A DNA stretch of 64,000 bases. Origin: an uncultured Gammaproteobacteria bacterium (lineage in GTDB: Bacteria; Pseudomonadota; Gammaproteobacteria; Steroidobacterales; GCA-2729495). Positions 14,415-56,479 of this stretch are shown one piece after another. The stretch spans positions 2,216,022 to 2,280,021 of the forward strand of contig CAWDHQ010000001.1 in assembly GCA_963802215.1 (NCBI GenBank). Reading direction: 5' to 3'. Made by a program: the position numbers and the translations under genes. The notes beneath the pieces are model-generated. The model made no database searches. It was given only the letters and a program-made list of their open reading frames with translations, and had not been told where the DNA came from. The first letter of the stretch is position 1. Each line of letters opens with the position of its first letter.

Positions 14415-15947
14415 TTGACTAATCCCGCCGCAGCTCCCGACGGCACGCGCATGGCGCCAACCACGCAACGCAAGGCAACCCCATCACCCGCAACCGGCAC
14501 TCCCGGAATCAGCGGGATGGCGCTGTACCTGCCCGCCTACCGGGTCGACCTCCGGCAGTGGTGCGAATGGACTGGCGGCGACTGGCAGAAGATCCGCCAG
14601 GTCGTAGGCTCCGGATTCCGCCTGCTCGGGCCGCGCCAGAGCGTCTACACGATGGCGGCCAATGCGCTGCTCCGCCTGATCCGCAATTACGACGTGGACC
14701 CGACGAGGATCCGGTACCTGGCCCTCGGCACCGAGTCCAGCACCGACAACTCGGCCGGGGCAATCATCGTGAAGGGCATGGTGGACGACGCCCTCCGCGC
14801 CCTCGGCCTGCCACCGATCGCCCGGACCTGCGAGGTCCCGGAGTTCAAGCACGCCTGCCTCGGAGGGATCTACGCGCTGAAGGGTGCCGTGCGCTTCCTC
14901 AGCACCGACGGTGACGACAGCCTCGCTGTGGTGATCTGCACCGACAAGGCCCTTTACGAACGGGGCAGCAGCGGCGAGCCCACCCAGGGCGCGGGCGCCG
15001 TGGCCATGCTCCTCGAGCCCCGGCCGCGACTGGCCAGCATCGACCTGCGCCACGCGGGCACGGCCTCCGAATACCGGGGCATCGATTTCCGGAAGCCCCT
15101 CACGGGCCGCCTTAACGGCCACGCTCATTCCCTGGATATCCCTGTCTACAACGGCCGATACTCGACCAACTGCTACGTGGATGAGGTGCGCCGGGCGCTC
15201 GATGACCTCTACGCCCGGCGCTCCCTTGCACCTGCCCCTTACCTGCGCAGCGTGGATGCGATCTTCATGCACCGGCCCTACGCGCGCATGCCGGAAACAG
15301 GCTTCGGCGTGGCCTACCTCTTCGCCCTTGCCCAGGGTGACGCCGCCGACCAGGAGGAACTCGCCACCTATTGCCGGGGAGCCGGCGTGCTGATGGGCGA
15401 AGTGCTGGAGGAGATGAGCACGGCGCCCGAGCTCGGACTTCTGGCCGTCTGCGACCGCATCCAGGACGAGATCTTTCCGCTCACCATGGCCGTGCTCAAG
15501 GTCTTCAGGCAGAGCGAAGCCTTTGGCAAGTACGTGCACGGCAAGATGGAACTCGGCGCCGACTGGATGCGCGAGGTCGGCAATCTCTATACCGGCGCAC
15601 TTCCCGCCTGGCTGGCCGCCGGCCTGGCCGACGCCGAGCGCCGCGGAACCGCCCTGGCGGGCCACGAACTTCTCACCATCGGCTATGGCAGCGGCAATGC
15701 GGCAGACGCGATCCCGCTCAGGGTCGTGGAGGGCTGGGAAGCAGCTGCCCGCAAGATTGGCGTGGAAGAGGCGCTGCGTCCCGCGATCGACCTGACCGCG
15801 GAACAGTACCTGGCACTGCGGGACGGGCTGGAGCCACGCGGCCTCGAGATTACACCCGCGGCGGAGTTCGTGGTGGAGCGGATCGGCGTGGAGGTCGGGC
15901 ACGCGTTCCAGGATTCGGGTGTGGAGTATTACCGCTACGTGCACTAG
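14415..15947 (+). CDS. mvaS: hydroxymethylglutaryl-CoA synthase
   Basis: 510-aa ORF (TTG at 14415; ATG alternatives at 14451 and 14517). GTESSTDNS and the EFKHACLGG catalytic Cys region are HMGS-like, and it is adjacent to other mevalonate genes. Confidence 0.8.
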   Translation: MTNPAAAPDGTRMAPTTQRKATPSPATGTPGISGMALYLPAYRVDLRQWCEWTGGDWQKIRQVVGSGFRLLGPRQSVYTMAANALLRLIRNYDVDPTRIRYLALGTESSTDNSAGAIIVKGMVDDALRALGLPPIARTCEVPEFKHACLGGIYALKGAVRFLSTDGDDSLAVVICTDKALYERGSSGEPTQGAGAVAMLLEPRPRLASIDLRHAGTASEYRGIDFRKPLTGRLNGHAHSLDIPVYNGRYSTNCYVDEVRRALDDLYARRSLAPAPYLRSVDAIFMHRPYARMPETGFGVAYLFALAQGDAADQEELATYCRGAGVLMGEVLEEMSTAPELGLLAVCDRIQDEIFPLTMAVLKVFRQSEAFGKYVHGKMELGADWMREVGNLYTGALPAWLAAGLADAERRGTALAGHELLTIGYGSGNAADAIPLRVVEGWEAAARKIGVEEALRPAIDLTAEQYLALRDGLEPRGLEITPAAEFVVERIGVEVGHAFQDSGVEYYRYVH

Positions 15948-16000: not shown

Positions 16001-17110
16001 TCAGCCCTGGCGCAGTCCGACCCGCTGCACATCCCCGCGAACACTGAGCCCCGGCGCGCACAGGTCCACGTCCAGCACCCGGAATCCTGCCGTGGCGAAC
16101 GCGGCGCGCACGGCCCGGTCCACCGCCCGGGAGTCGGTCAGCGCAATGCCAAAGTCGCCGCCCCCGGCGCCGGAGGGCTTGTAGACCGCGCCGTGCTTCA
16201 CGGCAATCGCACGCAACCGTTCATGCACGGGGGAAAAGATCCCGATCCCCGCCGCGGCGTCCAGCAACCGCAGGCCGGACTCGTAGCCGGCAATGGCGCC
16301 GAGCACGCCGGGTGCGTCTTCGGCGTTCCACGCCGCGACAGCCTGGGCGGCATTGGCCCCTAGCCGCTCCATATGGCTCGCAAAGCGCGTGGCATCCCGT
16401 TCCCGGTAGGCGCGTAGCCGACCGAGCATGAACGGGGTGGAGGCGCTCTCTCCCGACCACACGGCCGCCATGGAAAGCTGCCGCGGCCAGGAAACGGGAT
16501 GGGCCCGGGGCACGCTCATACCTGCGCCCTGGTCGCGGGCGAAATCGATGGCTACGGCGCCACCGGTAATCGCCGTGGCGACGTCAATGCCGCTTCCCGC
16601 ACCACCCTGGAGCCTCCGGTGCGCTTCGTGGCAGATGGCGATCAGCATCTGCCGGGGCAGGGCCGGCCCGCCGGCGAAGCGCAACAGGGCACCGGTGAGT
16701 GCAACCACGATCGCGGCGCTGGAGCCCAGGCCGAGCTTCACCCGATGCCCGTCCGGCCCGGCCTGGTGGAACGCCGCTGTAACCAGCTCGATCTGGCAGG
16801 CCGGTAATTCCGTTGCATGGGGCAGCAGGCCGCGCACGGCGAGGATCTCGGCGCAGGCCTCCAGCGGGAGGCCGAAGGCGCCGGGAGAGACGCCTTCCCA
16901 TCGCGTGCCACTCCCGGCGACCCAACGGAACCGGAAACTCTCGCCCGTGTCCGGAATCAGCAGCTGGTTGCCAGACCCGGGCATCGGCCTGATCCGCGCT
17001 TCGGCACGGACGTCGACGGCGACAGCCAGGCCTGGCGCGCCTTCCAGCACGGCGTACTCGCCGACGATGACGAGCTTGCCGGGCGCCTGGGCTTCAATCA
17101 GTTCCGGCAC
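16001..17110 (-). CDS. phosphomevalonate kinase (GHMP kinase family)
   Basis: C-terminal part of track ORF 16001..17299. GTG at 17110 gives VPELIEAQAPGKLVIVGEYAVLEG (PMK-type GEYAV motif) and GLGSSAA. It overlaps the mvaD stop by 17 nt. Confidence 0.7.
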   Translation of the reverse strand: MPELIEAQAPGKLVIVGEYAVLEGAPGLAVAVDVRAEARIRPMPGSGNQLLIPDTGESFRFRWVAGSGTRWEGVSPGAFGLPLEACAEILAVRGLLPHATELPACQIELVTAAFHQAGPDGHRVKLGLGSSAAIVVALTGALLRFAGGPALPRQMLIAICHEAHRRLQGGAGSGIDVATAITGGAVAIDFARDQGAGMSVPRAHPVSWPRQLSMAAVWSGESASTPFMLGRLRAYRERDATRFASHMERLGANAAQAVAAWNAEDAPGVLGAIAGYESGLRLLDAAAGIGIFSPVHERLRAIAVKHGAVYKPSGAGGGDFGIALTDSRAVDRAVRAAFATAGFRVLDVDLCAPGLSVRGDVQRVGLRQG

Positions 17111-18065
17111 GCAGGCGGGCCCCCTCACCCAGCGGGCTGCGCAGGATCCGGAGCACGCCGGGCACGGCGGCGAGCGCTGCCGCGACCTCGTCGGCGGCCC
17201 CCGGCAGGCACACGGCCTTGACCTGGGGCCCCGCATCGACCGTGAAGAACACCGGGACGCCACCGCGTCGCATGTCCTGCACCCGGTGCAGGCAGGCAAG
17301 GGTCGCCGGCGTCCAGTAGATCAGCGGCGGGCGGGTCGTCAGCATGACGGCATGCATCTTCAGGCAGTTGTGCTCGGCGAGCTCGGCGAGCGCCGCGAAA
17401 TCCCGGGAGCGCACGGCCGCCAGCCCGGCGGCAAGGTCAGCCCCGTGGGTCTGCACCCAGGCGTCGTAGTAGGGCGAGGTCTGCTCGCTCAGGGCCATGC
17501 CGGTACGGGAACTCGTTTCCTTGGGGCCGGTCGTGGTGACGGCCACCACGATCTCGAGGGGCCAGTCGGCTGGCGACGTCACCTGCTCGCAGACGGTGGT
17601 TGCGTCCCGGTTCGTGAGCACCACCACTCCACCCAGCAGGGACCGGGGTGCGGAACCGGAGCCGATCCGGGCAATCTCGGCAAGGCGCTGGCCATCGAGG
17701 TGGAGGCCGAGCGCGCCGGCGCCCGCCGTGACCAACGCGGCGAATCCGGACGCCGAAGATGCCAGACCGGCGCCGGTCGGAAAGTCGTTGCGGGATTCGA
17801 CGGTGGCCCGGGCGATCACCCCGGCTTCCCGACGCAACTCGTCGAGGCAGGCGCTGACGCGGGCGGTCGTCTCGGCGTCTTCCCGGCCGTCCAGCAGGAC
17901 GCGGTCCCGGATCAGGGCGGGGTCGAACTGGACGCTGGTCTCGGTGGCCAGGCCGCCCAGGACGAGCGACAGGGACCCGGTGGCCGGCAGATTGCCGGCA
18001 CGGGCGCGCTTGCCCCAGTACTTGACGAGGGCCACGTTGGGGTGGGCCACCGCGACCGCCCGCAT
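17094..18065 (-). CDS. mvaD: diphosphomevalonate decarboxylase
   Basis: 323 aa with NVALVKYWGKR, GLASSASG and GSGSAPRS motifs. Confidence 0.9.
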   Translation of the reverse strand: MRAVAVAHPNVALVKYWGKRARAGNLPATGSLSLVLGGLATETSVQFDPALIRDRVLLDGREDAETTARVSACLDELRREAGVIARATVESRNDFPTGAGLASSASGFAALVTAGAGALGLHLDGQRLAEIARIGSGSAPRSLLGGVVVLTNRDATTVCEQVTSPADWPLEIVVAVTTTGPKETSSRTGMALSEQTSPYYDAWVQTHGADLAAGLAAVRSRDFAALAELAEHNCLKMHAVMLTTRPPLIYWTPATLACLHRVQDMRRGGVPVFFTVDAGPQVKAVCLPGAADEVAAALAAVPGVLRILRSPLGEGARLRAGTD

Positions 18066-27392: not shown

Positions 27393-28163
27393 ATGTGCCT
27401 CGTTGCCGTTGCCTGGCAGGCCCATCCCCGATACCCGCTCATCCTGCTGGGCAACCGGGACGAGTTTCATCAGCGGCCCACGGTCCCCGCCGGGTGGTGG
27501 CCCGAGGCGGACCACGTGTTCGGGGGCCGGGACCTGCAGGCTGGCGGCAGCTGGCTCGGCGTCACCCGGCACGGCCGCGTGGCCGTGGTGACGAACAATC
27601 CGCTTCGCCCCCCCGGCGTCAACCACACCCGCAGCCGGGGTGCGCTGGTGCGCGCATGGCTTACGGGCGACAGCGCTTCAGGCGCTTTCCTGGACACCGT
27701 CGAGAACGACGTGGGGCACTACGCCGGGTTCAGCCTGCTGGTGGGCACGCTGGGTGCCGGGCTCGACGGTTTCGTCACGCCGGCAGGCAGCCTGGGCCCG
27801 CGCTGGCGCCTGCCCACCGGCGTCACGGTGCTGTCGAACTCGCCCCGGGAAACGCCCTGGCCAAAGGTCGGCTGGCTGCAGAAGGCGCTGGACAACTACC
27901 TTCGGCGGCCGATGCCCGCAACCGGGCCCGATGCCGAAGAACTGCTGTCCCTGGTTGGGCGACGCATGCCCGTGGCGGAACCCGAGGCCGACACGCCCGT
28001 CGCACGGGCCCGGGTGACGCCCTTCGTCACGGGTACCGACTACGGAACGCGGGCCGCGACCCTGATACTGGCCGATGACGACGGCGGGTGGCGCTGCATC
28101 GAGCGGCGCTTCGGGCCTGGGGGCATGCCAGCCGGCGAATCCCAGGCGCGCCACTCCCCGTAG
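27393..28163 (+). CDS. NRDE family protein (TANGO2/DUF833-like)
   Basis: MCLVAVAW...PLILLGNRDEF N-terminus is diagnostic of the NRDE family. Confidence 0.8.
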   Translation: MCLVAVAWQAHPRYPLILLGNRDEFHQRPTVPAGWWPEADHVFGGRDLQAGGSWLGVTRHGRVAVVTNNPLRPPGVNHTRSRGALVRAWLTGDSASGAFLDTVENDVGHYAGFSLLVGTLGAGLDGFVTPAGSLGPRWRLPTGVTVLSNSPRETPWPKVGWLQKALDNYLRRPMPATGPDAEELLSLVGRRMPVAEPEADTPVARARVTPFVTGTDYGTRAATLILADDDGGWRCIERRFGPGGMPAGESQARHSP

Positions 28164-28820: not shown

Positions 28821-28848
28821 TTGACAGCCGGACCGATCTGGATAGTAT
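28821..28848 (+). promoter_or_regulatory. sigma70-type promoter for argR (TTGACA-16 nt-TAGTAT)
   Basis: Consensus -35 TTGACA at 28821-28826 and -10 TAGTAT at 28843-28848, directly upstream of the argR coding frame. Confidence 0.55.
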
Positions 28849-28868
28849 GCGCATCCCTTCTGGCTTAT

Positions 28869-29342
28869 GTGCATGGAGAGAGCGTGCCCATCTCGGCCGA
28901 ACAACGGGAGCAGCGGCAGCAGGCGATCCTCAAGATCCTGCGCCGCCAGCACGTCACGCGGCAGGAGGAACTGGTCGAGCTGCTCCGGAAGCGGGGCATC
29001 GAGGCCACCCAGTCGAGCATCAGCCGTGACCTGCGCCAGCTGGGGATCACCAAGCTGGACCAGGAGTACCGGCCGGTGGCGGCGGACGGGGCCGATGACA
29101 CCAGCCACGACCTGGCCATGCTGGCGGAGTTCGTCGAAGAGACCCGCACGGCGGGCCCCTACCAGACGGTCGTGAAGACCGTGACGGGGGCGGCGGGGCA
29201 GGTGGCGCTGGCGCTGGACCGCTGCGGCTGGCCGGAGATCGTGGGCACGGTCTCGGGGGACGACACCATTTTTATCGCCACCCGCACCGGTGGCGATCAG
29301 AAGCGGCTCGTGGCAAAGCTGCGGGCGAGGCTTGGAGAGTAG
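28869..29342 (+). CDS. argR: arginine repressor
   Basis: Winged-helix N-terminus QEELVELLRKRGIEATQSSISRDLRQLG and C-terminal oligomerisation domain GTVSGDDTIFI. Start is GTG 28869 or GTG 28884, because the earlier part of the ORF is the promoter. Confidence 0.85.
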   Translation: MHGESVPISAEQREQRQQAILKILRRQHVTRQEELVELLRKRGIEATQSSISRDLRQLGITKLDQEYRPVAADGADDTSHDLAMLAEFVEETRTAGPYQTVVKTVTGAAGQVALALDRCGWPEIVGTVSGDDTIFIATRTGGDQKRLVAKLRARLGE

Positions 29343-29419: not shown

Positions 29420-30664
29420 ATGACCACCGACACCACGATCCAGAAGAAGAACGTCTCACCGATCATCCTCGGGTTCTCGGGGGGGCTCGACACGTCCTTC
29501 TGCGTGCCCTGGATGAAGGAACACTACGGCCGGCCGGTCGTCACCGTGACCATCAACACGGGCGGCATCGACGCCGAGGCCGCGAAGGACCTGGAGCGGC
29601 GCTCCGTCGCCCTCGGCGCCATCGAGCACGTGCTCGTGGAGGCCCGGTCCGTGTTCTTCGACCGGGTGCTCAGGTACCTGATCTTCGGCAACGTGCGCCG
29701 GGGGCATCTCTATCCGCTGTGCGTCGGTGCGGAGCGGGGCATCCAGGCCACGCTGCTGGCGGAACTGGCAAAGAAGCGCGGCAGCCAGACCGTCGCCCAC
29801 GGCTGCACGGCCGCCGGCAACGACCAGGTGCGTTTCGAGGTGGCCCTGCGCACCATCGCGCCGGGGCTGGAAGTACTCGCACCGGTCCGGGACCAGGGCT
29901 TCATCCGCACCGAGCAGCAGAAGTACCTGGAACAGCACGGGTTCCCCGTTCCCGTGAAGGGCTCCGCCTACTCTGTAAATCGGGGCCTGTGGGGCGTCAC
30001 CGTGGGCGGCCGGGAAACCCTGGACTCGAAGGAGTCCATCCCGGAAGACGCCTGGGTGCTCTCGCCCAACGCCTTCGACAAGCCGAAGCCCGCGGCCCGG
30101 CACACCATCAGCTTCACGCAGGGCATTCCAACCGCCCTGGACGGCAAGGCCATGGATCCGGTCACCCTGATCGAGACCCTGGAGACCGTCGCCGGGCCCT
30201 ATGGCATTGGCCGCGGCATCCACGTGGGCGACACCGTGCTCGGCACCAAGGGCCGGGTGGCCTTCGAGGCCCCCGCCGCCGACATCCTGCTGACCGCGCA
30301 CCGGGAGCTGGAAAAGCTGGTCCTGTCCGGGCCCCAGCAGCGCATCAAGGACCAGGTGGCCACCCAGTACGGCGACTTCGTGCACGAGGGCAAGCAGCTC
30401 GACCCGGTGTGCCGGGACATCGAGGCCCTGCTCGCCTCGGCCCAGCAGCGGGTCACCGGGGACGTGAAGATCGTGCTCCGGCCCGGCAACCTGTTCATCG
30501 AGGGCGTGGTCTCGCCCCACTCGCTGCTGGCCGCCACCAAGGGCGTCTACGGCGAGAAGGCCGGCGAATGGACCCCCGCCGACGCCCTGGGCTACTCGCG
30601 CATCCTCTCGCTGCCCGGGATCCTGCAGACACGAGCCGGCGGCAAGCAGTCAGGCAAGCCATGA
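29420..30664 (+). CDS. argG: argininosuccinate synthase
   Basis: 414 aa with FSGGLDTS ATP-binding motif, AHGCTAAGNDQVRFE, and conservation along the full length. Confidence 0.93.
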   Translation: MTTDTTIQKKNVSPIILGFSGGLDTSFCVPWMKEHYGRPVVTVTINTGGIDAEAAKDLERRSVALGAIEHVLVEARSVFFDRVLRYLIFGNVRRGHLYPLCVGAERGIQATLLAELAKKRGSQTVAHGCTAAGNDQVRFEVALRTIAPGLEVLAPVRDQGFIRTEQQKYLEQHGFPVPVKGSAYSVNRGLWGVTVGGRETLDSKESIPEDAWVLSPNAFDKPKPAARHTISFTQGIPTALDGKAMDPVTLIETLETVAGPYGIGRGIHVGDTVLGTKGRVAFEAPAADILLTAHRELEKLVLSGPQQRIKDQVATQYGDFVHEGKQLDPVCRDIEALLASAQQRVTGDVKIVLRPGNLFIEGVVSPHSLLAATKGVYGEKAGEWTPADALGYSRILSLPGILQTRAGGKQSGKP

Positions 30665-31734
30665 AAACCGTCATTGCGGACAAGATCGCGTCCATCGCCC
30701 AGAACCTGAACCTCAAGCGGGAGCTGCGGGTGAGCGCGGACATCCCCTGCGAGGAAGGCGTGCTGATTGCCGCCGAGGTGCTCAACAACAAGAACACCTA
30801 CAACCAGCTGGAGCTCACCAGCGGCCGGATGGCCGTGGTCAAGAAGGGCGACATCGTCGTCGGCGCGCTCGGGCACCGGAAAGCCCTGTTCGGCTACTCC
30901 GGACACATCCCGGAGAAGCTCGCGGTTGGCGACACCCTGCAGCTGCTGAACATGGGTGGCGTCATCGGCGTGTGCGATTCCATCAATGCCAGCTTCGGCC
31001 AGCCCTTCGATGCCCGGGTACTCGGCGCGGTGCTCGACTTTCCGTATCTTGGCGAGCGCATTGGCGTCCCGGCACGGATCGGCATGCAGAAGCTGGCGAC
31101 CGAGCCCGTGCTGGATACCCGGGGCGTGCCAGTGGTGGCCATCGCCGGCACCTGCATGAACTCCGGCAAGACGGCAGCCGCCTGCGCCATCGTGAGCCGG
31201 CTCCGGCACCACGGGCACACGGTGGATGCCTTCAAGGCCACCGGCGTGTCCCTGCGTCGGGACATCCTGGCCATGGAGGACGCGGGCGCCCGCAACACGC
31301 TGATCTTCACGGATTTTGGCGTGGCCTGCACCACGGGACTGAATGGCCCCGCGGTGACGCGCACCATGCTCACGCGGCTCGCCGCCAGCAAGCCGGACGT
31401 GATCGTCTTCGAGCTGGGCGACGGCATCCTGGGCGCCTACGGCGTGGAGGCGATCCTCCGGGACGCGGGGATCCGTGACGCGCTCACCTGCCTGGTCCTG
31501 TGCGCCAATGACCCCGTCGCGGCCTGGGGCGGCGTGAAGCTGCTGCGCGAGGATTTCGGCATCGAGCCGGCGATCGTCACCGGTCCCGCCACGGACAACG
31601 ACGTGGGCAAGGACATCATCGTCCAGCGCATGGGCGTGAAGGCGATCAACGCCGTCACCGAATCCATGCAGCTGGGCGACGCGGTGACCACCCAGGTGGG
31701 CCTGAAGCTCTCCCAGCCGGACGCTTCGTCCTGA
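30661..31734 (+). CDS. P-loop (GTxxxxGKT) protein of unknown function embedded in the arg operon, BioD/CobQ/DUF1611-like
   Basis: 357 aa, ATG overlapping the argG stop (ATGA). The motif VVAIAGTCMNSGKTAAACAIV, followed by ATG...TDF and FELGDG, resembles the DUF1611 pattern GTDCAVGKRTT...ATGQTG...DF...EGQG (comparison from memory). Confidence 0.6.
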   Translation: MKTVIADKIASIAQNLNLKRELRVSADIPCEEGVLIAAEVLNNKNTYNQLELTSGRMAVVKKGDIVVGALGHRKALFGYSGHIPEKLAVGDTLQLLNMGGVIGVCDSINASFGQPFDARVLGAVLDFPYLGERIGVPARIGMQKLATEPVLDTRGVPVVAIAGTCMNSGKTAAACAIVSRLRHHGHTVDAFKATGVSLRRDILAMEDAGARNTLIFTDFGVACTTGLNGPAVTRTMLTRLAASKPDVIVFELGDGILGAYGVEAILRDAGIRDALTCLVLCANDPVAAWGGVKLLREDFGIEPAIVTGPATDNDVGKDIIVQRMGVKAINAVTESMQLGDAVTTQVGLKLSQPDASS

Positions 31735-31738
31735 GGGG

Positions 31739-32812
31739 ATGACTGGCATGAGCAACCGGACTCCGGCCCTGATCATCGGCGGCACAGGTTACGTGGCCGG
31801 CGAACTGCTGCGCCTCGTGGGCCAGCACCCCGACCTGACGCTGGCCGGTGTTTCGTCGGAGAGCCAGGCCGGCACGGCGGTGAGCGCGGCCTTTCCGCAC
31901 CTTGCTCCCGTGGTGAGGGACCTGCCCTTCGTCACCCAGGCGGAACTGGCGGCGCGGATCACGGCCCCCCGGGTCGCGCTGTTCTCGGCCGCTCCCCACG
32001 TGGTGAGCGCCGGCGTCGTGGCCAGCATGCTGGAGGCGGCTGGCTCCAGCGGCAGCAATCTTTCCGTCGTGGACGCGTCATCGGACTTCCGCTTCCGGAA
32101 CGCGGCGGACTTCGAGGCCGTGTACAAGCAGCCCCACGGCGCACCCGGGCTGCTGCCGCAGTTCACCTGCGCGCTGCCGGAGCATGTGGCCGGCATTCCC
32201 GGCCCTCACGTCGGGCACCCGGGGTGCTTCGCCACGTCGATGCTGGCCGGCCTCGTGCCGCTGCTGAAGCCGGGCCTGGCCGACGGCCCTGTTTATGCAT
32301 CGGGCGTCACCGGCAGCACCGGTGCGGGCCGGACTCCCATCGCCACCACCCACCACCCGGAGCGGCACTCCAACCTGTTCGCCTACAACCCGCTGAGGCA
32401 CCGCCACGCGCCGGAAGTGGTGCAGATCTGCCGGGAACTGACGGGCGTGGCGCCGGACCTGCATTTCGTGCCCCACTCCGGACCCTTCGCCCGCGGGATC
32501 CACATGACGCTGCAGGGGCGCCTCGACCGGCCGCAGACCAGCGACCAGTTGCGCGAGGTCTTCGCGCAGTTCTATGCCGGCCAGGAGTTCGTGCGTGTGG
32601 TGGATGGCGCGCCACGGGTGAAGGACGTTGCCGGCAGCAACTACTGCCACATCGGCGCGGCAACGTCGGGCAATGGCCAGACCTTCGTCGTGCTGGTGGC
32701 CATCGACAACCTGGTCAAGGGCGCGGCGGGCGGCGCCGTGCAATGGATGAACCGGTTGCTGGGCCTGCCGGAGTCCGCCGGGCTCACAGCACCGGCGCCC
32801 GGCTGGATCTAG
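31739..32812 (+). CDS. argC: N-acetyl-gamma-glutamyl-phosphate reductase
   Basis: IIGGTGYVAGELLRL NAD fold, catalytic Cys in HPGCFATS, and DNLVKGAAGGAVQ near the C-terminus. Confidence 0.9.
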   Translation: MTGMSNRTPALIIGGTGYVAGELLRLVGQHPDLTLAGVSSESQAGTAVSAAFPHLAPVVRDLPFVTQAELAARITAPRVALFSAAPHVVSAGVVASMLEAAGSSGSNLSVVDASSDFRFRNAADFEAVYKQPHGAPGLLPQFTCALPEHVAGIPGPHVGHPGCFATSMLAGLVPLLKPGLADGPVYASGVTGSTGAGRTPIATTHHPERHSNLFAYNPLRHRHAPEVVQICRELTGVAPDLHFVPHSGPFARGIHMTLQGRLDRPQTSDQLREVFAQFYAGQEFVRVVDGAPRVKDVAGSNYCHIGAATSGNGQTFVVLVAIDNLVKGAAGGAVQWMNRLLGLPESAGLTAPAPGWI

Positions 32813-32814
32813 GA

Positions 32815-33978
32815 ATGCCGATGGCAACGACTTCCCAGAACGCCGAGGCACGGCACCTCCTGCAGGTCTACGGCCAGCTGCCGCTGGAAACCACGTCCGC
32901 CGAGGGCGTGTACCTGCACGCCGGCAAGCGGCGGATCATCGACTTCTACGGCGGTCACGCCGTGGCGGCGCTGGGGTACGCACATCCCGACCTGCTGGCA
33001 GCCCTGGAGACCCAGGCAAGGACCATGTACTTCCAGAGCAACGCCGTGGCGCTCCAGGTACGGGCGAAGGCGGGCGATGCGCTGGCCGGCATCGCCCCGG
33101 AAGGACTCAACCGCGTCTTCTTCGTGAACAGCGGCGCCGAGGCCAACGAGAACGCCCTGCGCGTGGCCTGCCGGGCGACGGGCCGCTCGCGGGTGCTGGC
33201 GCTCGAGCACGGCTTCCACGGCCGGACCGCTGCCGCCTCTGCCGTCACCTGGGGGGCCGCGAAGAGCTGGTACGGCTTCCCCCGCACCCCGTTCGACGTG
33301 GAGTTCATGCCGCGGGACGACGCGGCCCGGGCGCGGGAAATGATCAACGGCGATACCGCGGCGGTGATCATCGAGCTCGTGCAGGGCCTCGCCGGTGCCT
33401 ACGACCTGGACCCGGGCTTCGTGCAGGCGGTCGCCGAAGCCTGCCACAGGACCGGCGCACTGCTGATCGTGGATGAGGTGCAGAGTGGCGTCGGCCGGAC
33501 CGGCGCCCCCTTCGCCGCAAACCTCTACGACGTTAAGCCAGACATGCTGACCACCGCGAAAGCCCTGGGCGGTGGCTTCCCCTGCAGCGCGCTCCTGATG
33601 ACCGAGGCTCTGGCGCACACCCTGAAGTCCGGGGACCTGGGCACCACATTTGGTGGAGGCCCAATGGCCTGCGCCCTGGTGAGCACCGTCATCGAGGTGA
33701 TCCGGCGGGACCGGCTCATGGACAACGTGCGCACGCTGTCCGATGAGATCCGCAAGCACGCGGTCACCGGGCCGGTGCAGGCGATCCAGGGCAGGGGCTT
33801 CCTCCTGGGACTTCGCTGCCGGCGCCCGGCCAGGGACATCCAGGCGGCGTTGCTGGACCGGGACATCCTGGTCGGCACGAGTTCGGATCCGCAGATCGTG
33901 CGGCTCCTGCCGCCGCTCACCCTGGAGAAGCAGCACGTGGCTAAACTGGTCAGCGCACTGTGTGATATCGGCCCATAA
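32815..33978 (+). CDS. argD: acetylornithine (acyl-ornithine) aminotransferase, class III PLP
   Basis: Inner start MPMATTSQNAEARHLLQVYG of track ORF 32224..33978. Has GFHGRT, DEVQSGVGRTG and the PLP lysine context TTAKALGGG. Confidence 0.88.
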   Translation: MPMATTSQNAEARHLLQVYGQLPLETTSAEGVYLHAGKRRIIDFYGGHAVAALGYAHPDLLAALETQARTMYFQSNAVALQVRAKAGDALAGIAPEGLNRVFFVNSGAEANENALRVACRATGRSRVLALEHGFHGRTAAASAVTWGAAKSWYGFPRTPFDVEFMPRDDAARAREMINGDTAAVIIELVQGLAGAYDLDPGFVQAVAEACHRTGALLIVDEVQSGVGRTGAPFAANLYDVKPDMLTTAKALGGGFPCSALLMTEALAHTLKSGDLGTTFGGGPMACALVSTVIEVIRRDRLMDNVRTLSDEIRKHAVTGPVQAIQGRGFLLGLRCRRPARDIQAALLDRDILVGTSSDPQIVRLLPPLTLEKQHVAKLVSALCDIGP

Positions 33979-33987
33979 GGAACCTGC

Positions 33988-35001
33988 ATGGCACTCAAGC
34001 TTTTCAACGACCTCGCGGACTTCAGCATTCCGGAAGTGGAAGCCCTGCTGAAGCTGGCCCGCCGGCTGCAGACGAACCCCGAGCCCCGGGCCCTGGAGGG
34101 CAAGGTGCTCGCGATGCTGTTCCTGAGCCCGTCACTGCGCACGCTGTCGTCCTTCCAGGCGGCGATGGTGCGGCTCGGCGGCGGCTCCTTCGTGATCTCG
34201 CCGGACATGTCCATCCACGGCCTGGAGACCCGCTCGGGCATCGTGATGGACGGCGTGGCCGCGGAGCACCTGCGGGAGGCGATCCCCGTGATCAGCTCCT
34301 ACGGTGACGCACTGGGAATCCGGGCCTTCGCCAACCGGGTGAACCTGGCCACCGACCTGGCCGACACGGAGTTCCTGGCCATGCGCGAGCTGGTGAAGGT
34401 ACCGCTCATCAACATGGAGTCGGCGATCCAGCACCCGTGCCAGAGCCTGGCGGACTGGAAGACGATGGACGAGCTGAACGTCCCGAAGAAGGGCGGCAAG
34501 TTCGTCCTGTCCTGGTCCTGGCACCCGAAGGCCCTGCCCCTGGCCGTGCCGTCTGCCACGCTGCATATGGCGGCCATGCGCGGCATGGACGTCACCGTCG
34601 TCCGGCCCGACGGCTTCGAACTGCCGCCCGCGATCATGGACAAGGCCCGCAAGGCTGCGACGCTGTCGGGCGGCTCGGTGCGCGAAACCAACGACCGGGC
34701 AGAGGCCTACCAGGACGCCCACATCATCTACGCGAAAGAGTGGTCCTCCACGCGGCACTATGGCGACCGGGTCGCCGACCAGAAGCTGCGGGAGCAGCTC
34801 CAGGACTGGATAGTGGACGAGCCGTCGTTCGCGAAGGCGCAGCCGTCGGCCCGCTTCATGCACTGCCTGCCCGTGCGACGCGGCGTGGCCGTGACGGACC
34901 GCATTCTCGACGGACCGCGCAGCGTGGTGATCCACGAGGCGCAGAACAGGATGTGGGGCCAGATGGCCGTGGTCTACCAGATGATGGGCCCCGGGGCTTA
35001 A
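33988..35001 (+). CDS. argF': N-acetylornithine carbamoyltransferase-like transcarbamylase (AOTCase/SOTCase family)
   Basis: Collinear with Xanthomonas AOTCase: SPSLRT, PLINMESAIQHPCQSLAD, HCLPVRRGV. The loop HGLETRSGIVMDG aligns a Glu with the acetyl-specific Glu of WPIEFNLGTVMDG (alignment from memory). Confidence 0.8.
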   Translation: MALKLFNDLADFSIPEVEALLKLARRLQTNPEPRALEGKVLAMLFLSPSLRTLSSFQAAMVRLGGGSFVISPDMSIHGLETRSGIVMDGVAAEHLREAIPVISSYGDALGIRAFANRVNLATDLADTEFLAMRELVKVPLINMESAIQHPCQSLADWKTMDELNVPKKGGKFVLSWSWHPKALPLAVPSATLHMAAMRGMDVTVVRPDGFELPPAIMDKARKAATLSGGSVRETNDRAEAYQDAHIIYAKEWSSTRHYGDRVADQKLREQLQDWIVDEPSFAKAQPSARFMHCLPVRRGVAVTDRILDGPRSVVIHEAQNRMWGQMAVVYQMMGPGA

Positions 35002-35071: not shown

Positions 35072-36004
35072 ATGAAGAGTCATGAACGGGATGTGGTCGT
35101 CTCCGCGCTCAAACACGCGGCTCCCTACATCCGCCTCTACAAGAAGAAGATCTTCGTCCTCAAGGCGGGCGGCGAGGTCTTCACGTCGGACGAGGCCACC
35201 AGGCACCTGCTGGAGCAGGTCGCGCTGTTGCACCAGGTTGGCATCCGGGTCGTGCTGGTGCACGGCGGCGGGCCCCAGTCCACGGAGCTGGCCAACGCCC
35301 TGGGCGTACCGACGCAGATGGTCGGGGGCCGCCGGGTCACCGACAAGCAGACGCTCGACGTCACCACGATGGTGCTCAATGGCACGGTGAACACGCGGAT
35401 CCTGGCGGCCTGCCGGGACCTGCACCTGCCGGCCGTCGGGATCAGCGGCGTGGACGCGGGCCTCATCAAGGCCCACAAGCGCCCGCCGGTCCAGGTGGAG
35501 GGCCACGCGGGCGGTCCGGTGGACTTCGGCTTCGTCGGCGACATCGACAGCGTGGACACCGACGTGGTGCGCGCCCAGCTCGAGAACGGGATGGTTCCCA
35601 TTGTCAGCCCCCTGTCGGCCGACGAGAACGGCACGGTGCTCAACATCAATGCCGACACCGTGGCCGCGGCGCTGGCCACGTCGCTGCGCGCCTCCAAGCT
35701 CATCCTCACGATGGGCGCACCCGGCATCCTGGAGGACCGGCACGACCTGTCGTCGCTGGTGTCCTACCTGGACCTGGAGGACCTGCAGGAACTGCGCGCC
35801 AACGGCTCCCTGGCGGAGGGCATGCTGCCGAAGGCCCGGGCCATCGAGGCGGCGATCAAGGGCGGCGTGCCGCGCGTCCACCTGATCTCCTACAAGATCC
35901 CCGACAGCCTGCTGCTGGAGATCTTCACCAACGAGGGCACGGGCACGCTGGTCGTGGAGGACACGGACACGCTGACACCCGAAGAGCAGGAAGCCGGCGC
36001 CTGA
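35072..36004 (+). CDS. argB: acetylglutamate kinase
   Basis: 310 aa. Amino-acid kinase fold with VLKAGGE, VLVHGGGPQ and NINADTVAAALA. No fused GNAT/NAGS domain. Confidence 0.9.
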   Translation: MKSHERDVVVSALKHAAPYIRLYKKKIFVLKAGGEVFTSDEATRHLLEQVALLHQVGIRVVLVHGGGPQSTELANALGVPTQMVGGRRVTDKQTLDVTTMVLNGTVNTRILAACRDLHLPAVGISGVDAGLIKAHKRPPVQVEGHAGGPVDFGFVGDIDSVDTDVVRAQLENGMVPIVSPLSADENGTVLNINADTVAAALATSLRASKLILTMGAPGILEDRHDLSSLVSYLDLEDLQELRANGSLAEGMLPKARAIEAAIKGGVPRVHLISYKIPDSLLLEIFTNEGTGTLVVEDTDTLTPEEQEAGA

Positions 36005-36014
36005 GGGCCAAGTG

Positions 36015-37211
36015 ATGAAACGTCTCTGGGACAAGGGCGAGCCTCTGGACTCGCGCATTCTCCGCTACACCGCCGGGGAAGATCACCTGCTGGATGCCCG
36101 GCTGGTGCCCTACGACGTGCGCGCCTCCATCGCCCACGCCCAGATGCTGCACGGGCAGAAGCTGCTGGCTGCCGACGACCTTCGGCAGATCATCACCGGC
36201 CTGGAGGCAATCGCGGCATCACACGCCGCTGGCGAGTGGCAGATCAGCCTCGAGGAGGAGGACTGCCACACGGCGCTGGAGCACCGGCTCACCCAGATGA
36301 TCGGCGAGGCCGGCCGGCGAGTGCATCTCGGCCGGTCGCGCAATGACCAGGTCCTGGTTGCGCTCCGCCTCTACCTGCTGGACGCGGCGGAAGGCATTGC
36401 CGCAGCCGCCCGGGACGTGGCGACGGCCCTCGATGAGCTGGCGACGCGGGAGAAGGCCACCGTGCTGCCGGGTTACACCCACATGCAGCAGGCCATGCCG
36501 AGCTCCGTGCCCCTCTGGGCAGGCGGCTTCGCGGCAGAACTCCGCGACGACGCCGAGGGAATCGCCGCCAGCCGCCGCCGGCTCTCCAGGAACCCGCTCG
36601 GCAGCGCGGCCGGCTATGGCGTACCCGGGCTCCCCATAGACCGCGAGGCGACCCGTCGCACGCTGGGCTTCGACGTGGTGCACGAGCCCGTCACCGCCGT
36701 CCAGATCTCCCGGGGCAAGGGCGAAGCCGGGCTGGTCTTCGAGCTGGCCCTCCTCACCCAGGACCTGGGCCGGATGGCGGCGGACCTCCTGCTGTTCTAC
36801 ACGCAGGAATTCCGCTTCGTCGCGCTGCCCGACACGATGACCACGGGCTCGTCGATCATGCCCCAGAAGCGCAATCCCGACGTGCTCGAGCTCGTGCGGG
36901 GCGCCGTGCCGACGATGCAGGCGGCGCTGGTGGAGATTCTCGGCCTGCCGGCCAAGCTCGGCTCCGGCTACCAGCGCGACCTCCAGAGGATGAAGGCGCC
37001 CCTGTTCCGTGCCATCGACCTGGCGGGCGATTCGGCCCGGGTGATGGCCCACCTGATCCGCGGGCTCAGGTTCCTGCCCGAGAACATTCACCTCGACGAT
37101 TCGATCCATGCGGCCGAGCGGGCGAACGAACTGGTGCAGAAGGAAGGCATCAGCTTCCGGGAGGCCTATCAGCGGGTGGGAGCGGCGCTGGCCCGGCGAA
37201 AACCTGGCTAG
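36015..37211 (+). CDS. argH: argininosuccinate lyase
   Basis: Fumarate-lyase signature GSSIMPQKRNPD, plus RSRNDQV and TGYTHMQQA-like motifs. A GTG at 36012 is also possible. Confidence 0.9.
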   Translation: MKRLWDKGEPLDSRILRYTAGEDHLLDARLVPYDVRASIAHAQMLHGQKLLAADDLRQIITGLEAIAASHAAGEWQISLEEEDCHTALEHRLTQMIGEAGRRVHLGRSRNDQVLVALRLYLLDAAEGIAAAARDVATALDELATREKATVLPGYTHMQQAMPSSVPLWAGGFAAELRDDAEGIAASRRRLSRNPLGSAAGYGVPGLPIDREATRRTLGFDVVHEPVTAVQISRGKGEAGLVFELALLTQDLGRMAADLLLFYTQEFRFVALPDTMTTGSSIMPQKRNPDVLELVRGAVPTMQAALVEILGLPAKLGSGYQRDLQRMKAPLFRAIDLAGDSARVMAHLIRGLRFLPENIHLDDSIHAAERANELVQKEGISFREAYQRVGAALARRKPG

Positions 37212-55117: not shown

Positions 55118-56479
55118 TTGAGCGCACGGAAGGGAGACCCATCTGTGCGCGCGATCATCGGTGCCCGCTTGCTGGCAAGCGGGGCCGCCCAGCCCAAGGC
55201 CAAACCGTTCGACATCCGGGATAGTCGCCTGGCGGGCTTCCTATTGCGCGTCCAGCCCTCCGGAGCACGGTCCTTCTGTGTCCAGCTCGGCAGGGGCAGA
55301 AGGCTGACCCTGGGCAAGGTGGGCCACCTGACCCCCGAGCAGGCGCGCCACCGGTGCGAGCAGGTGCTGGGGAACGTCGCCCACGGCCGGGAGCCGCTGG
55401 CGGGCCTGGATGGGGCCGCGCGGCTCAGCCTCGGGGAGTTCATCCGGAACCAGTACGAGCCCTGGATCCAGGCCAACCGGCCCCGGAACGCGGCATCCGC
55501 CCTGGCCCGGGTCGAGAACTGCTTTGGCCACTGGTACGACCAGCCCATGTGCGGCCTGTCCACCTACCAGCTCGAAGCCTGGAAGACGGGTCGCCTGGGG
55601 AAGGGCAAGCGGCCGGCTACCGTGCTCCGGGACCTGACCACGTTGTCAGGCATCCTGAGTTTCGCTGTCCGGCTGGGCCTTCTGGCTGACAACCCCATGC
55701 GGCGTGTCCTCAAGCCACGGCTGGACCGGACGCCCAATGTGCGGTTCCTGGACCCCGAGGAAGAGTCACGCCTCCGGTCGGCTCTGGAAGATCGGGACCA
55801 TCGCATCAGGGCCGCCCGGGAGTCCGGCAACGCCTGGCGGCGGGCCCGGAATCATGCGCCGCTGCCCAAGCTCACCGGCTTCGGCGACCACCTGACGCCC
55901 GCTGTCCTGGTCAGCCTCAACACGGGATTGCGCCGCGGCGAGTTGCTGGCGCTCTGCTGGCACGATATCAACCTGCGGCTGGCCGTGCTGTCGGTTCAGG
56001 CCACGTCGGCCAAGAGCGGGCAAACGCGCCACGTCCCCCTCAACGCCGAATGCATCGAGACCCTGAAACGCTGGCGGGACCAGAATCCGGATGCCAGTCC
56101 CCTCGACAAGGTGTTTGCGGTCAGCACCTCATTCAAGACCGCCTGGTCGGTGGTTCTGAAAGCGGCCGGTATCAAGAGATTCCGCTGGCACGACCTGCGC
56201 CACCACTTCGCCTCGCGGCTCGTCCAGGCCGACGTCAATCTCAATACCGTCCGGGAGCTGCTGGGTCACGGCTCACTGGCAATGACGCTGCGGTATGCGC
56301 ACCTGGGACCGGATCAAAAGCGTGAGGCCGTTGACCGGCTGTCCATGCGGCGGGAGGAACCGGCTGAAGCAAGGGCAACGGCAGCGCTGCTGGGATTTCC
56401 GCGAGCTGGCGAATTGCCACCGCCAGACTATTGCCTGCCACCCGCAGCCCGGGGCGGCCTGTCTGCGGCGCACCCTTGA
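55118..56479 (+). CDS. tyrosine-type site-specific integrase, P4-like (DUF4102 arm-binding N-terminus)
   Basis: FDIRDSRLAGFLLRVQPSGARSF N-terminal domain. Catalytic region TGLRRGEL, WHDLRHHFAS, LGHGSLAMTLRYAHL. Start is TTG 55118 or GTG 55144 (after GGGAGA). Confidence 0.88.
   Translation: MSARKGDPSVRAIIGARLLASGAAQPKAKPFDIRDSRLAGFLLRVQPSGARSFCVQLGRGRRLTLGKVGHLTPEQARHRCEQVLGNVAHGREPLAGLDGAARLSLGEFIRNQYEPWIQANRPRNAASALARVENCFGHWYDQPMCGLSTYQLEAWKTGRLGKGKRPATVLRDLTTLSGILSFAVRLGLLADNPMRRVLKPRLDRTPNVRFLDPEEESRLRSALEDRDHRIRAARESGNAWRRARNHAPLPKLTGFGDHLTPAVLVSLNTGLRRGELLALCWHDINLRLAVLSVQATSAKSGQTRHVPLNAECIETLKRWRDQNPDASPLDKVFAVSTSFKTAWSVVLKAAGIKRFRWHDLRHHFASRLVQADVNLNTVRELLGHGSLAMTLRYAHLGPDQKREAVDRLSMRREEPAEARATAALLGFPRAGELPPPDYCLPPAARGGLSAAHP

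Follow-up and report, generated by a model that had tools for sequence, protein, structure and literature searches.

A P-loop protein family of bacterial arginine operons as a candidate for the missing N-acylglutamate synthase

The locus and its arginine operon

The stretch of DNA analysed here, which we call the window, spans 64,000 nucleotides (nt) of an uncultured gammaproteobacterium of the Steroidobacterales (assembly GCA_963802215.1, contig CAWDHQ010000001.1, positions 2,216,022 to 2,280,021) and holds an arginine-biosynthesis operon with one gene, here termed X, from a family without a name. X (30661..31734; all genes and motifs of the operon given below lie on the + strand) encodes a protein of 357 amino acids which is likely to be an N-acylglutamate synthase, whatever its mechanism, and a candidate N-succinyl-L-glutamate synthase in particular. 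Its ATG (30661-30663) overlaps the TGA stop codon of argG (30662-30664) in an ATGA, read directly from the sequence (30661..30664), which suggests that the translation of X is coupled to that of argG. A longer in-frame open reading frame (ORF) beginning upstream (29719..) was discarded as spurious because every homologue of X begins at the same MKT. The GC fractions of X at the first, second and third codon positions (0.66, 0.44 and 0.91) are typical of coding sequence in this DNA. X is not a chance ORF, since it has more than 7,900 matches in a database clustered at 90%, all of them labelled ‘hypothetical protein’, and is the most conserved protein of its operon, with a median identity of 69.5% across 80 species as against 53-69% for ArgC, ArgD, ArgB, ArgH, ArgG and ArgF'.

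The protein consists of two domains, delimited from structure models, Foldseek searches and, respectively, conservation and profile searches: an N-terminal all-beta domain (about residues 1-130; 30661..31050) and a C-terminal alpha/beta P-loop domain of BioD-like type, belonging to the SIMIBI class (about residues 156-345; 31126..31695). The latter opens with the extended Walker A motif GTCMNSGKT (residues 163-171; 31147..31173), which aligns with GTDTEVGKT of BioD and includes the invariant G169 and K170. It is followed by FKATGVSLRRD (residues 191-201; 31231..31263), in which the invariant K192 corresponds to BioD K37 and D201 to BioD D54, and by FELGDG (residues 250-255; 31408..31425), whose invariant E251, at a Walker-B-like position, corresponds to BioD E115, a Mg2+ ligand. 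The segments FKATGV (residues 191-196) and FTDFG (residues 216-220) are likewise conserved.

On the same strand, in a series whose intergenic gaps range from -4 to 77 nt, X is preceded by argR for the arginine repressor (28821..29342; Pfam Arg_repressor and Arg_repressor_C) and argG for argininosuccinate synthase (29420..30664; TIGR00032, 287 bits, cutoff 268). It is followed by argC (31739..32812; TIGR01850, 291 bits, cutoff 234), argD for N-acylornithine aminotransferase (32848..33978; Pfam Aminotran_3, with argD, TIGR00707, as the best NCBIfam model), argF' for N-acylornithine carbamoyltransferase (33988..35001; NF003384, 332 bits, cutoff 288), argB for N-acylglutamate kinase (35072..36004; TIGR00761, 219 bits, cutoff 151) and argH for a short, 399-residue form of argininosuccinate lyase (36012..37211; TIGR00838, 302 bits, cutoff 279.5). 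Each of these neighbours is thus backed by Pfam or NCBIfam models, most of them above the curated cutoffs. ArgB (310 amino acids) shows the AA_kinase domain alone, with no GNAT domain detected in it, and a Pfam survey of the credible ORFs of the window between 486 and 48398, together with two ORFs at 53331-56479 (about 50 kb of the 64 kb), found no ArgA, ArgJ, ArgE or M20 peptidase. An initial annotation made from the sequence alone had placed X at these coordinates, overlapping argG, with the motifs GTCMNSGKT, ATG...DF and FELGDG. It had also given the gene order argR-argG-X-argC-argD-argF'-argB-argH, a plain 310-residue ArgB without a fused synthase, and a cluster lacking ArgA/ArgJ and ArgE. 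The sequence, the conservation of the motifs among homologues, the family assignments and the survey bear out all of this.

The acyl group carried through the pathway can be approached from ArgF', which aligns with the Xanthomonas campestris N-acetylornithine carbamoyltransferase at 223 bits. At the position equivalent to E92 of that enzyme the window ArgF' has Ala (codon 34261..34263), reading MDGVAAEH as against MDGDTEEH in the wild type, and thereby matches the E92A mutant in PDB entry 3l02. All 63 scorable ArgF' proteins encoded next to X share this Ala, as does that of Steroidobacter denitrificans, and in distant clusters the position is occupied by Ala, Ser or Val. The substitutions E92A/P/S/V shift the specificity of the X. 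campestris enzyme to succinylornithine (Shi et al. 2007, quoted in the GapMind 2026 preprint). Because of this Ala, the pathway of the operon is probably succinylated and not acetylated, as judged from the sequence, and the NCBIfam name ‘N-acetylornithine carbamoyltransferase’ is probably wrong for the window ArgF', and systematically so in this clade.

The X family: conservation, fold and genomic contexts

The family of X is a large one: clustering at 50% identity leaves at least 1,469 representatives (E<=1e-3), of which 205 are reached at E<=1e-30. In an alignment of 44 diverse members (28-67% identity), P84, G169, K170, K192, E251 and D284 are invariant, and S11, E51, R73, T171, D201 and D218 are conserved in at least 90%. 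The N-terminal domain contributes S11, G33, E51, R73 and P84 to the invariant or nearly invariant positions. No Pfam or NCBIfam family matched X above threshold, the traces seen being those of MobB (16.7 bits) and DUF1611_C (PF07755; 13 bits, with a gathering score of 25). No GNAT domain (Acetyltransf_1) was detected in X or in any of the 44 diverse members, the Pfam search of X gave no Peptidase_M20 with its dimerisation domain, and a PDB sequence search with X returned no match at E<=10. AAA_26 and CbiA did not match X itself in Pfam; some family members match them weakly (best E 1.8e-4 and 3.4e-6, respectively).

The DUF1611_C trace rises to 17.3 bits in the S. denitrificans orthologue and to 23-24.6 bits in the best-scoring members, and is confined to some 40 residues in the vicinity of the P-loop (profile positions of about 10-50 out of 201). 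No DUF1611_N (PF17396) model appeared for the 44 members within the top 25 families by number of matches (E<=1), and a PDB sequence search with the family member of best DUF1611 score did not reach 2OBN or 7XRJ. Given a score of 13 bits where 25 are required, a match of some 40 residues and a different N-terminal domain, X is not a member of DUF1611 but belongs to a separate family, the common ground being the class of the P-loop domain only. The UniRef label of the S. denitrificans orthologue is nevertheless ‘DUF1611 domain-containing’, and a 2025 survey lists the Woeseiales as major carriers of dgcN (PMC12363236). Members of the Woeseiaceae have X in their arginine operons, and some of the Woeseiales ‘dgcN’ counts may be of this arginine-operon family instead.

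An AlphaFold2 model of the full-length protein (predicted local distance difference test score, pLDDT, of 80) shows the two domains, and residues 1-152 modelled alone form an all-beta domain with a pLDDT of 92.6. A Foldseek search of the PDB with the N-terminal domain found no solved relative (best E=1.1), 2OBN and 7XRJ included. For the C-terminal domain, Foldseek ranks BioD first (1dts, E 6.7e-7), followed by signal recognition particle (SRP) GTPases and HypB. The DUF1611 protein 2OBN comes at rank 26 (E 3.2e-5, TM score of about 0.4 normalised to either chain) and the D-glutamate N-acetyltransferase DgcN at rank 38 (7XRJ; E 5.8e-5, root-mean-square deviation of 5.2 Å over 234 columns, TM score of about 0.4, 15% identity). 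Consistently, the family profile matches the Mycobacterium tuberculosis BioD (3fgn, E 3.6e-4) and no DUF1611 structure. An hhalign comparison with E. coli BioD, for which an approximate sequence was used, gave a probability of 71%, and aligns BioD K15, T16, K37, D54 and E115, its phosphoryl-transfer and Mg2+ residues, with K170, T171, K192, D201 and E251 of X. The pairing of K192 with K37 recurs in the hidden Markov model alignment to 3fgn, and K192, D201 and E251 are each invariant or at least 90% conserved. The initial annotation had likened the motif pattern of X to both BioD/CobQ-type enzymes and DUF1611, and had called for a structure comparison with the two. The first likeness emerges strengthened, by the best profile and Foldseek match and the aligned residues, and the second does not amount to membership of DUF1611, the Pfam score being below threshold and the N-terminal domain different. 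Its description of DgcN as a glutamate N-acetyltransferase agrees with the deposition of 7XRJ under that activity.

We examined the neighbourhood of X in 80 related loci, namely species-level genomes of Steroidobacteraceae, Woeseiaceae and ‘Chromatiaceae’-labelled metagenome-assembled genomes (MAGs), in which X is 66-87% identical to that of the window. These loci were gathered with a close alignment and are hence biased to one gammaproteobacterial clade, and about a dozen (12) distant representatives were looked up to offset this bias. X lies within an arginine cluster in all 80, mostly in the order argR-argG-X-argC-(argD)-argF'-argB-argH, and does so in seven of eight distant bacterial contexts. 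The initial annotation had counted homologues unlinked to arg genes in other taxa, together with a canonical argA/argJ and argE elsewhere in the genome, as evidence against its proposal; these contexts show the linkage instead, which extends to other phyla and to homologues of only 28-35% identity. A 49% identical homologue lies in argR-X-argC-argD-argF-argB, one of 35% in argG-X-argF'-argH-argS, one of 33% next to argH (argH-X) and one of 28% in X-argC-argB, with argD on the other strand. A Blastocatellia genome has argR-argG-X-argC-argF-argB, and a 6 Mb contig X-argC-argD-argB-M20 peptidase-argR-argG-argH. The minimal arrangement X-argC-argB stands alone in six of the 80 loci and in one further locus (L085). 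An M20/ArgE-like peptidase gene shares the arginine cluster with a homologue of X in two of the distant loci (11174-12259 in L100; about 13785-14402 in L096), and was found neither among the surveyed ORFs of the window nor in the 80 closer loci.

One lineage presents a fusion of an X-like region (residues 4-306) with an amino-acid kinase domain (residues 363-597) in a protein of 626 amino acids (P0234). It occurs in four contigs from four samples (L092-L095; 8001-9881 in L092) but forms a single database cluster, and adjoins an arginase-family gene outside any arginine operon. The fusion is genuine insofar as it is reproduced, and it constitutes weak evidence, coming as it does from one cluster. 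In contrast, an apparent fusion of X with ArgC (P0170) is an artefact, because its long-read metagenome contig (L096) also ‘fuses’ ArgR with ArgG and ornithine carbamoyltransferase with ArgB, as is typical of frameshifted long-read assemblies. Such frameshift-fused gene calls in protein databases can mislead Rosetta-stone arguments.

Immediately upstream of the operon, the window encodes a TANGO2-family protein (27393-28163, +) that starts with MC..., like N-terminal nucleophile (Ntn) hydrolases with a Cys nucleophile; an amidase-like fold beside a cluster without its deacylase is of some interest. Of the 80 loci, 38 have a TANGO2 homologue no more than 10 kb upstream, as has S. denitrificans, and TANGO2, NUDIX and polA genes are syntenic with the arginine cluster in 36-40 of the 80. 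As distant clusters are without them, their proximity is probably synteny of the lineage and not functional linkage. A haloarchaeal X-like locus, for its part, contains three ATP-grasp genes and an MscS/C39-like gene.

The closest known system is that of S. denitrificans DSM 18526 (CP011971.1), the X orthologue of which (ACG33_RS14135 / ACG33_14140, here P0433; UniProt A0A127FCT3) matches X at 488 bits in BLASTP, with 67% identity over 353 of 357 residues. Its operon is identical in order and flanks, with TANGO2 upstream and polA downstream, its ArgF' has the same Ala92, and nothing substantively different separates the two proteins. The GapMind 2026 preprint computationally predicts ACG33_RS14135 to be an N-succinylglutamate synthase, that is, an alternative ArgA. 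The grounds that it gives are the conserved arginine-operon neighbourhood, the growth of S. denitrificans in minimal medium without an ArgA homologue, the observation that the family never co-occurs with the Pseudomonas-type ArgA, a weak Foldseek match to 7XRJ and the ArgF' position-92 rule; it also reports that the ArgA and ArgE steps are both missing in that genome. X is hence the orthologue of a protein whose function prediction is already published, and credit for the hypothesis goes to that preprint.

The proposed reaction and its rivals

We propose that X acylates L-glutamate at its alpha-amino group, most likely with succinyl. The resulting N-succinyl-L-glutamate would then be passed on to ArgB, ArgC, ArgD and the succinyl-type ArgF', and a desuccinylase encoded elsewhere would free citrulline for ArgG and ArgH. 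The acyl donor would be succinyl-CoA (coenzyme A), by analogy with the acetyl-CoA-dependent DgcN. The P-loop domain may hold the nucleotide-phosphate part of that donor, and the conserved basic residues R73, K192, R199 and R200 may, together with the N-terminal domain, hold the two dicarboxylates. In this specific form, a non-GNAT N-succinyl-L-glutamate synthase using succinyl-CoA, the proposal is tentative and falls somewhat short of probable. That the first step is the one in question is favoured because the minimal X-argC-argB operons hold only enzymes which handle N-acylglutamate, and because X is fused to an amino-acid kinase domain in one lineage; it is preferred over the deacylation because X shares clusters with the M20 ArgE-like peptidase. 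These observations, with the linkage to arg genes and the preprint, support the suggestion of the initial annotation that X is a non-orthologous replacement for N-acylglutamate synthase. It had left the acyl group unspecified or, by way of DgcN, acetyl; the synthase survives here, and the acetyl group probably yields to succinyl in view of Ala92 of ArgF'.

Several points tell against this assignment. The likeness to DgcN, as far as the models go, is remote and no better than that to BioD, the SRP GTPases or HypB; X is below the Pfam threshold of DUF1611, and its N-terminal domain is unlike the one in that family. The conserved constellation for Mg2+ and nucleoside triphosphate (NTP) would suit an enzyme that uses ATP no less than one that uses a CoA ester. 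As to the linkage, a Planctomycetota homologue is not associated with arg genes and adjoins a NUDIX gene, and homologues of archaeal type (31-32% identity) overlap by 4 nt with genes for RimK-family alpha-L-glutamate ligases (L087-L089, with the pair at 8054-10014 in L087, and L090/L091, with the pair at 10001-12878 in L090), a pairing which suggests a second, non-arginine role of the family in glutamate-peptide chemistry. In eight of the 80 loci the arg genes are followed, about 2 kb further downstream, by a GNAT (FR47-like) gene (14652-15497 in L034; homologues in L012, L013, L020, L024, L025, L048 and L063), with DoxX and VIT1 genes in between; this gene could be either the ArgA candidate of those genomes or mere synteny. 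The absence of argA and argJ is established for the surveyed ORFs of the window, the Pfam survey saying nothing about the rest of the genome. Lastly, the activity of the family is a prediction, drawn from how the gene is built and conserved, from the class of its fold, from its genomic linkage and from the signature in ArgF'.

The residue mapping brings to the fore an ATP-dependent succinate:L-glutamate ligase, in which the glutamate amine would attack succinyl phosphate, yielding N-succinylglutamate, ADP and phosphate with no CoA ester involved; we consider this possible but on balance unlikely. It would account for BioD being the nearest solved protein in both the profile and the Foldseek search, and for the extended P-loop (GxxxxxGKT) and the five equivalents of BioD catalytic and Mg2+ residues, invariant or nearly so, when the binding of a CoA thioester needs no Mg2+ ligands. 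BioD, CobQ, CTP synthase and formyltetrahydrofolate synthetase all phosphorylate a carboxylate, and the activation of a free acid with ATP is said to be the usual chemistry of the BioD superfamily; the archaeal homologues, moreover, are translationally coupled to ATP-dependent glutamate ligases. Against this, DgcN, the sole characterised glutamate N-acylating enzyme of this fold, reportedly uses acetyl-CoA, and other succinylations, such as those by DapD, AstA and MetA, use succinyl-CoA. DUF1611 proteins may also retain the same residues, and the hhalign probability was only 71%, and that with an approximate BioD sequence. More doubtful still is a wider reading, by which X founds an enzyme family that consumes ATP and a free dicarboxylic acid to N-acylate glutamate through a BioD-type acyl phosphate, on a scaffold of two domains of which the N-terminal one is without a solved relative, and that serves as a general stand-in for the GNAT amino-acid N-acyltransferases. 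Within it, and with the same doubt, X would replace ArgA beside ArgB and ArgC in bacteria, and in archaea an X-like protein would be paired with RimK-type alpha-L-glutamate ligases; if true, a peptide of N-acyl-glutamyl type, so far undescribed, would be expected as the archaeal product.

Other readings depart further from the succinyl-CoA-dependent synthase. An accessory or regulatory NTPase, acting in metal insertion, complex assembly or as a scaffold of the arginine enzymes in the manner of the SIMIBI proteins HypB, UreG, MobB and MeaB, would agree with HypB, MobB and the SRP GTPases being among the best structural or profile matches and with the lack of a recognisable acyl-binding motif in X. 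We hold it to be improbable: X has no NKxD guanine motif and its P-loop is of the extended BioD type, an accessory factor would seldom be as conserved as the core enzymes, a link at the level of substrates is indicated by the X-argC-argB operons and the kinase fusion, and ArgA and ArgE would both be left unexplained in a prototroph. Very improbable is an ArgJ-like transacylase that moves succinyl from N-succinylcitrulline or N-succinylornithine to glutamate, and we know of no P-loop enzyme which does so. It would close the ArgA and ArgE gaps at one stroke, both steps being missing in the cluster and, according to the GapMind 2026 preprint, in the S. denitrificans genome, and it would suit the position of X between argG and argC or, in one subfamily, between argG and argF'. 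However, it would render the conserved NTP/Mg2+ site purposeless, the cycle would still require a priming synthase, and L100 and L096 have a candidate M20 deacylase in addition to X. Equally slight are the chances that X makes N-acetyl-L-glutamate for an acetylated route of the Xanthomonas type: the above-cutoff NCBIfam name of ArgF' and the acetyltransferase activity of DgcN speak for it, but the Glu92 that defines the acetyl specificity is replaced by Ala in the window ArgF' and at 63 of 63 loci, as in the engineered E92A enzyme. Barely credible, finally, is the deacylase that the initial annotation had offered as an alternative, an ArgE substitute acting as N-succinylcitrulline desuccinylase. 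ArgE is absent from the cluster, and in Xanthomonas argE adjoins argG as X does here; yet this role is disfavoured because a P-loop NTP-binding fold is implausible as a scaffold for amide hydrolysis, and the X-argC-argB operons hold no late genes, M20 peptidases coexist with X in the same cluster and the kinase domain fused to X belongs to the early pathway.

Implications and comparison with known systems

Outside the operon, the window codes for an HMG-CoA synthase-like protein (14415-15947, +) and a diphosphomevalonate decarboxylase-like protein (17094-18065, -), mevalonate-pathway genes in a genome of gammaproteobacterial appearance. A large serine recombinase (53331-54938, +) stands beside a tyrosine integrase (55118-56479, +), a pair that is probably an integrated mobile element, and the region of about 50-64 kb is poor in gene density and in the signal of GC content at third codon positions (GC3).

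The first enzyme of arginine biosynthesis is not recognisable in many prototrophic bacteria, among them the Woeseiaceae and Steroidobacteraceae, which are abundant in sediment and soil, and MAGs of Acidobacteriota and Myxococcota. If our assignment is right, the X family supplies this missing ArgA step through a fold not previously connected with it, and the prediction of auxotrophy and metabolism from metagenomes would improve. Two likely annotation faults would be corrected as well, namely ArgF' proteins of this kind as acetyl-type and X-like proteins as DUF1611/DgcN. Beyond the published prediction, the present analysis repeats the comparison independently with another, larger set of genomes, and contributes the negative result for DUF1611 membership and an N-terminal domain whose fold has no solved relative. 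It also maps the catalytic residues of BioD onto X, which brings in the ATP-ligase alternative, draws evidence on the step from the kinase fusion, from the operons reduced to X-argC-argB and from the clusters shared with M20 peptidases, and describes the archaeal pairing with RimK-type ligases.

Set against known systems, X has its closest structural kin in the BioD superfamily (with CobQ/CobB and CTP synthase), with which it has in common the extended P-loop and the equivalents of K37, D54 and E115, as well as the best profile and Foldseek match. It differs from these proteins in the added N-terminal domain of 130 residues, in AAA_26/CbiA scores below threshold, and in unrelated substrates and genomic context. 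Its C-terminal P-loop domain can be superposed, as a remote match, on those of DgcN and 2OBN, and the substrate of DgcN is likewise the amino group of glutamate; but identity is about 15%, the all-beta N-terminal domain of X is distinct, and the D-glutamate, acetyl group and catabolic role of DgcN stand opposite the L-glutamate, succinyl group and anabolic role predicted for X from its sequence and context. ArgJ, the ornithine acetyltransferase, and ArgE, the M20 deacetylase, supply the very functions missing in the X cluster, but X resembles neither in sequence or fold, and M20 candidates coexist with it in some clusters. On the wider reading given above, the archaeal coupling of X-like proteins with RimK-type ligases may be likened to the N-acetylglutaminylglutamine synthetase Ngg, which combines a GNAT with an ATP-grasp domain. 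In the proposed reaction and place in the pathway, X would stand alongside the GNAT-type ArgA, the Xanthomonas ArgA/B and the GNAT N-succinylglutamate synthase of Bacteroides. With a gene placed between argR and argC, the argF'-type cluster calls the Bacteroides layout to mind, and the kinase-GNAT architecture of ArgA and ArgA/B is mirrored by the rare fusion of X with a kinase. These canonical synthases rely on a GNAT domain, whereas X has none and its fold is unrelated; if it indeed catalyses their reaction, it is a genuine non-orthologous replacement.

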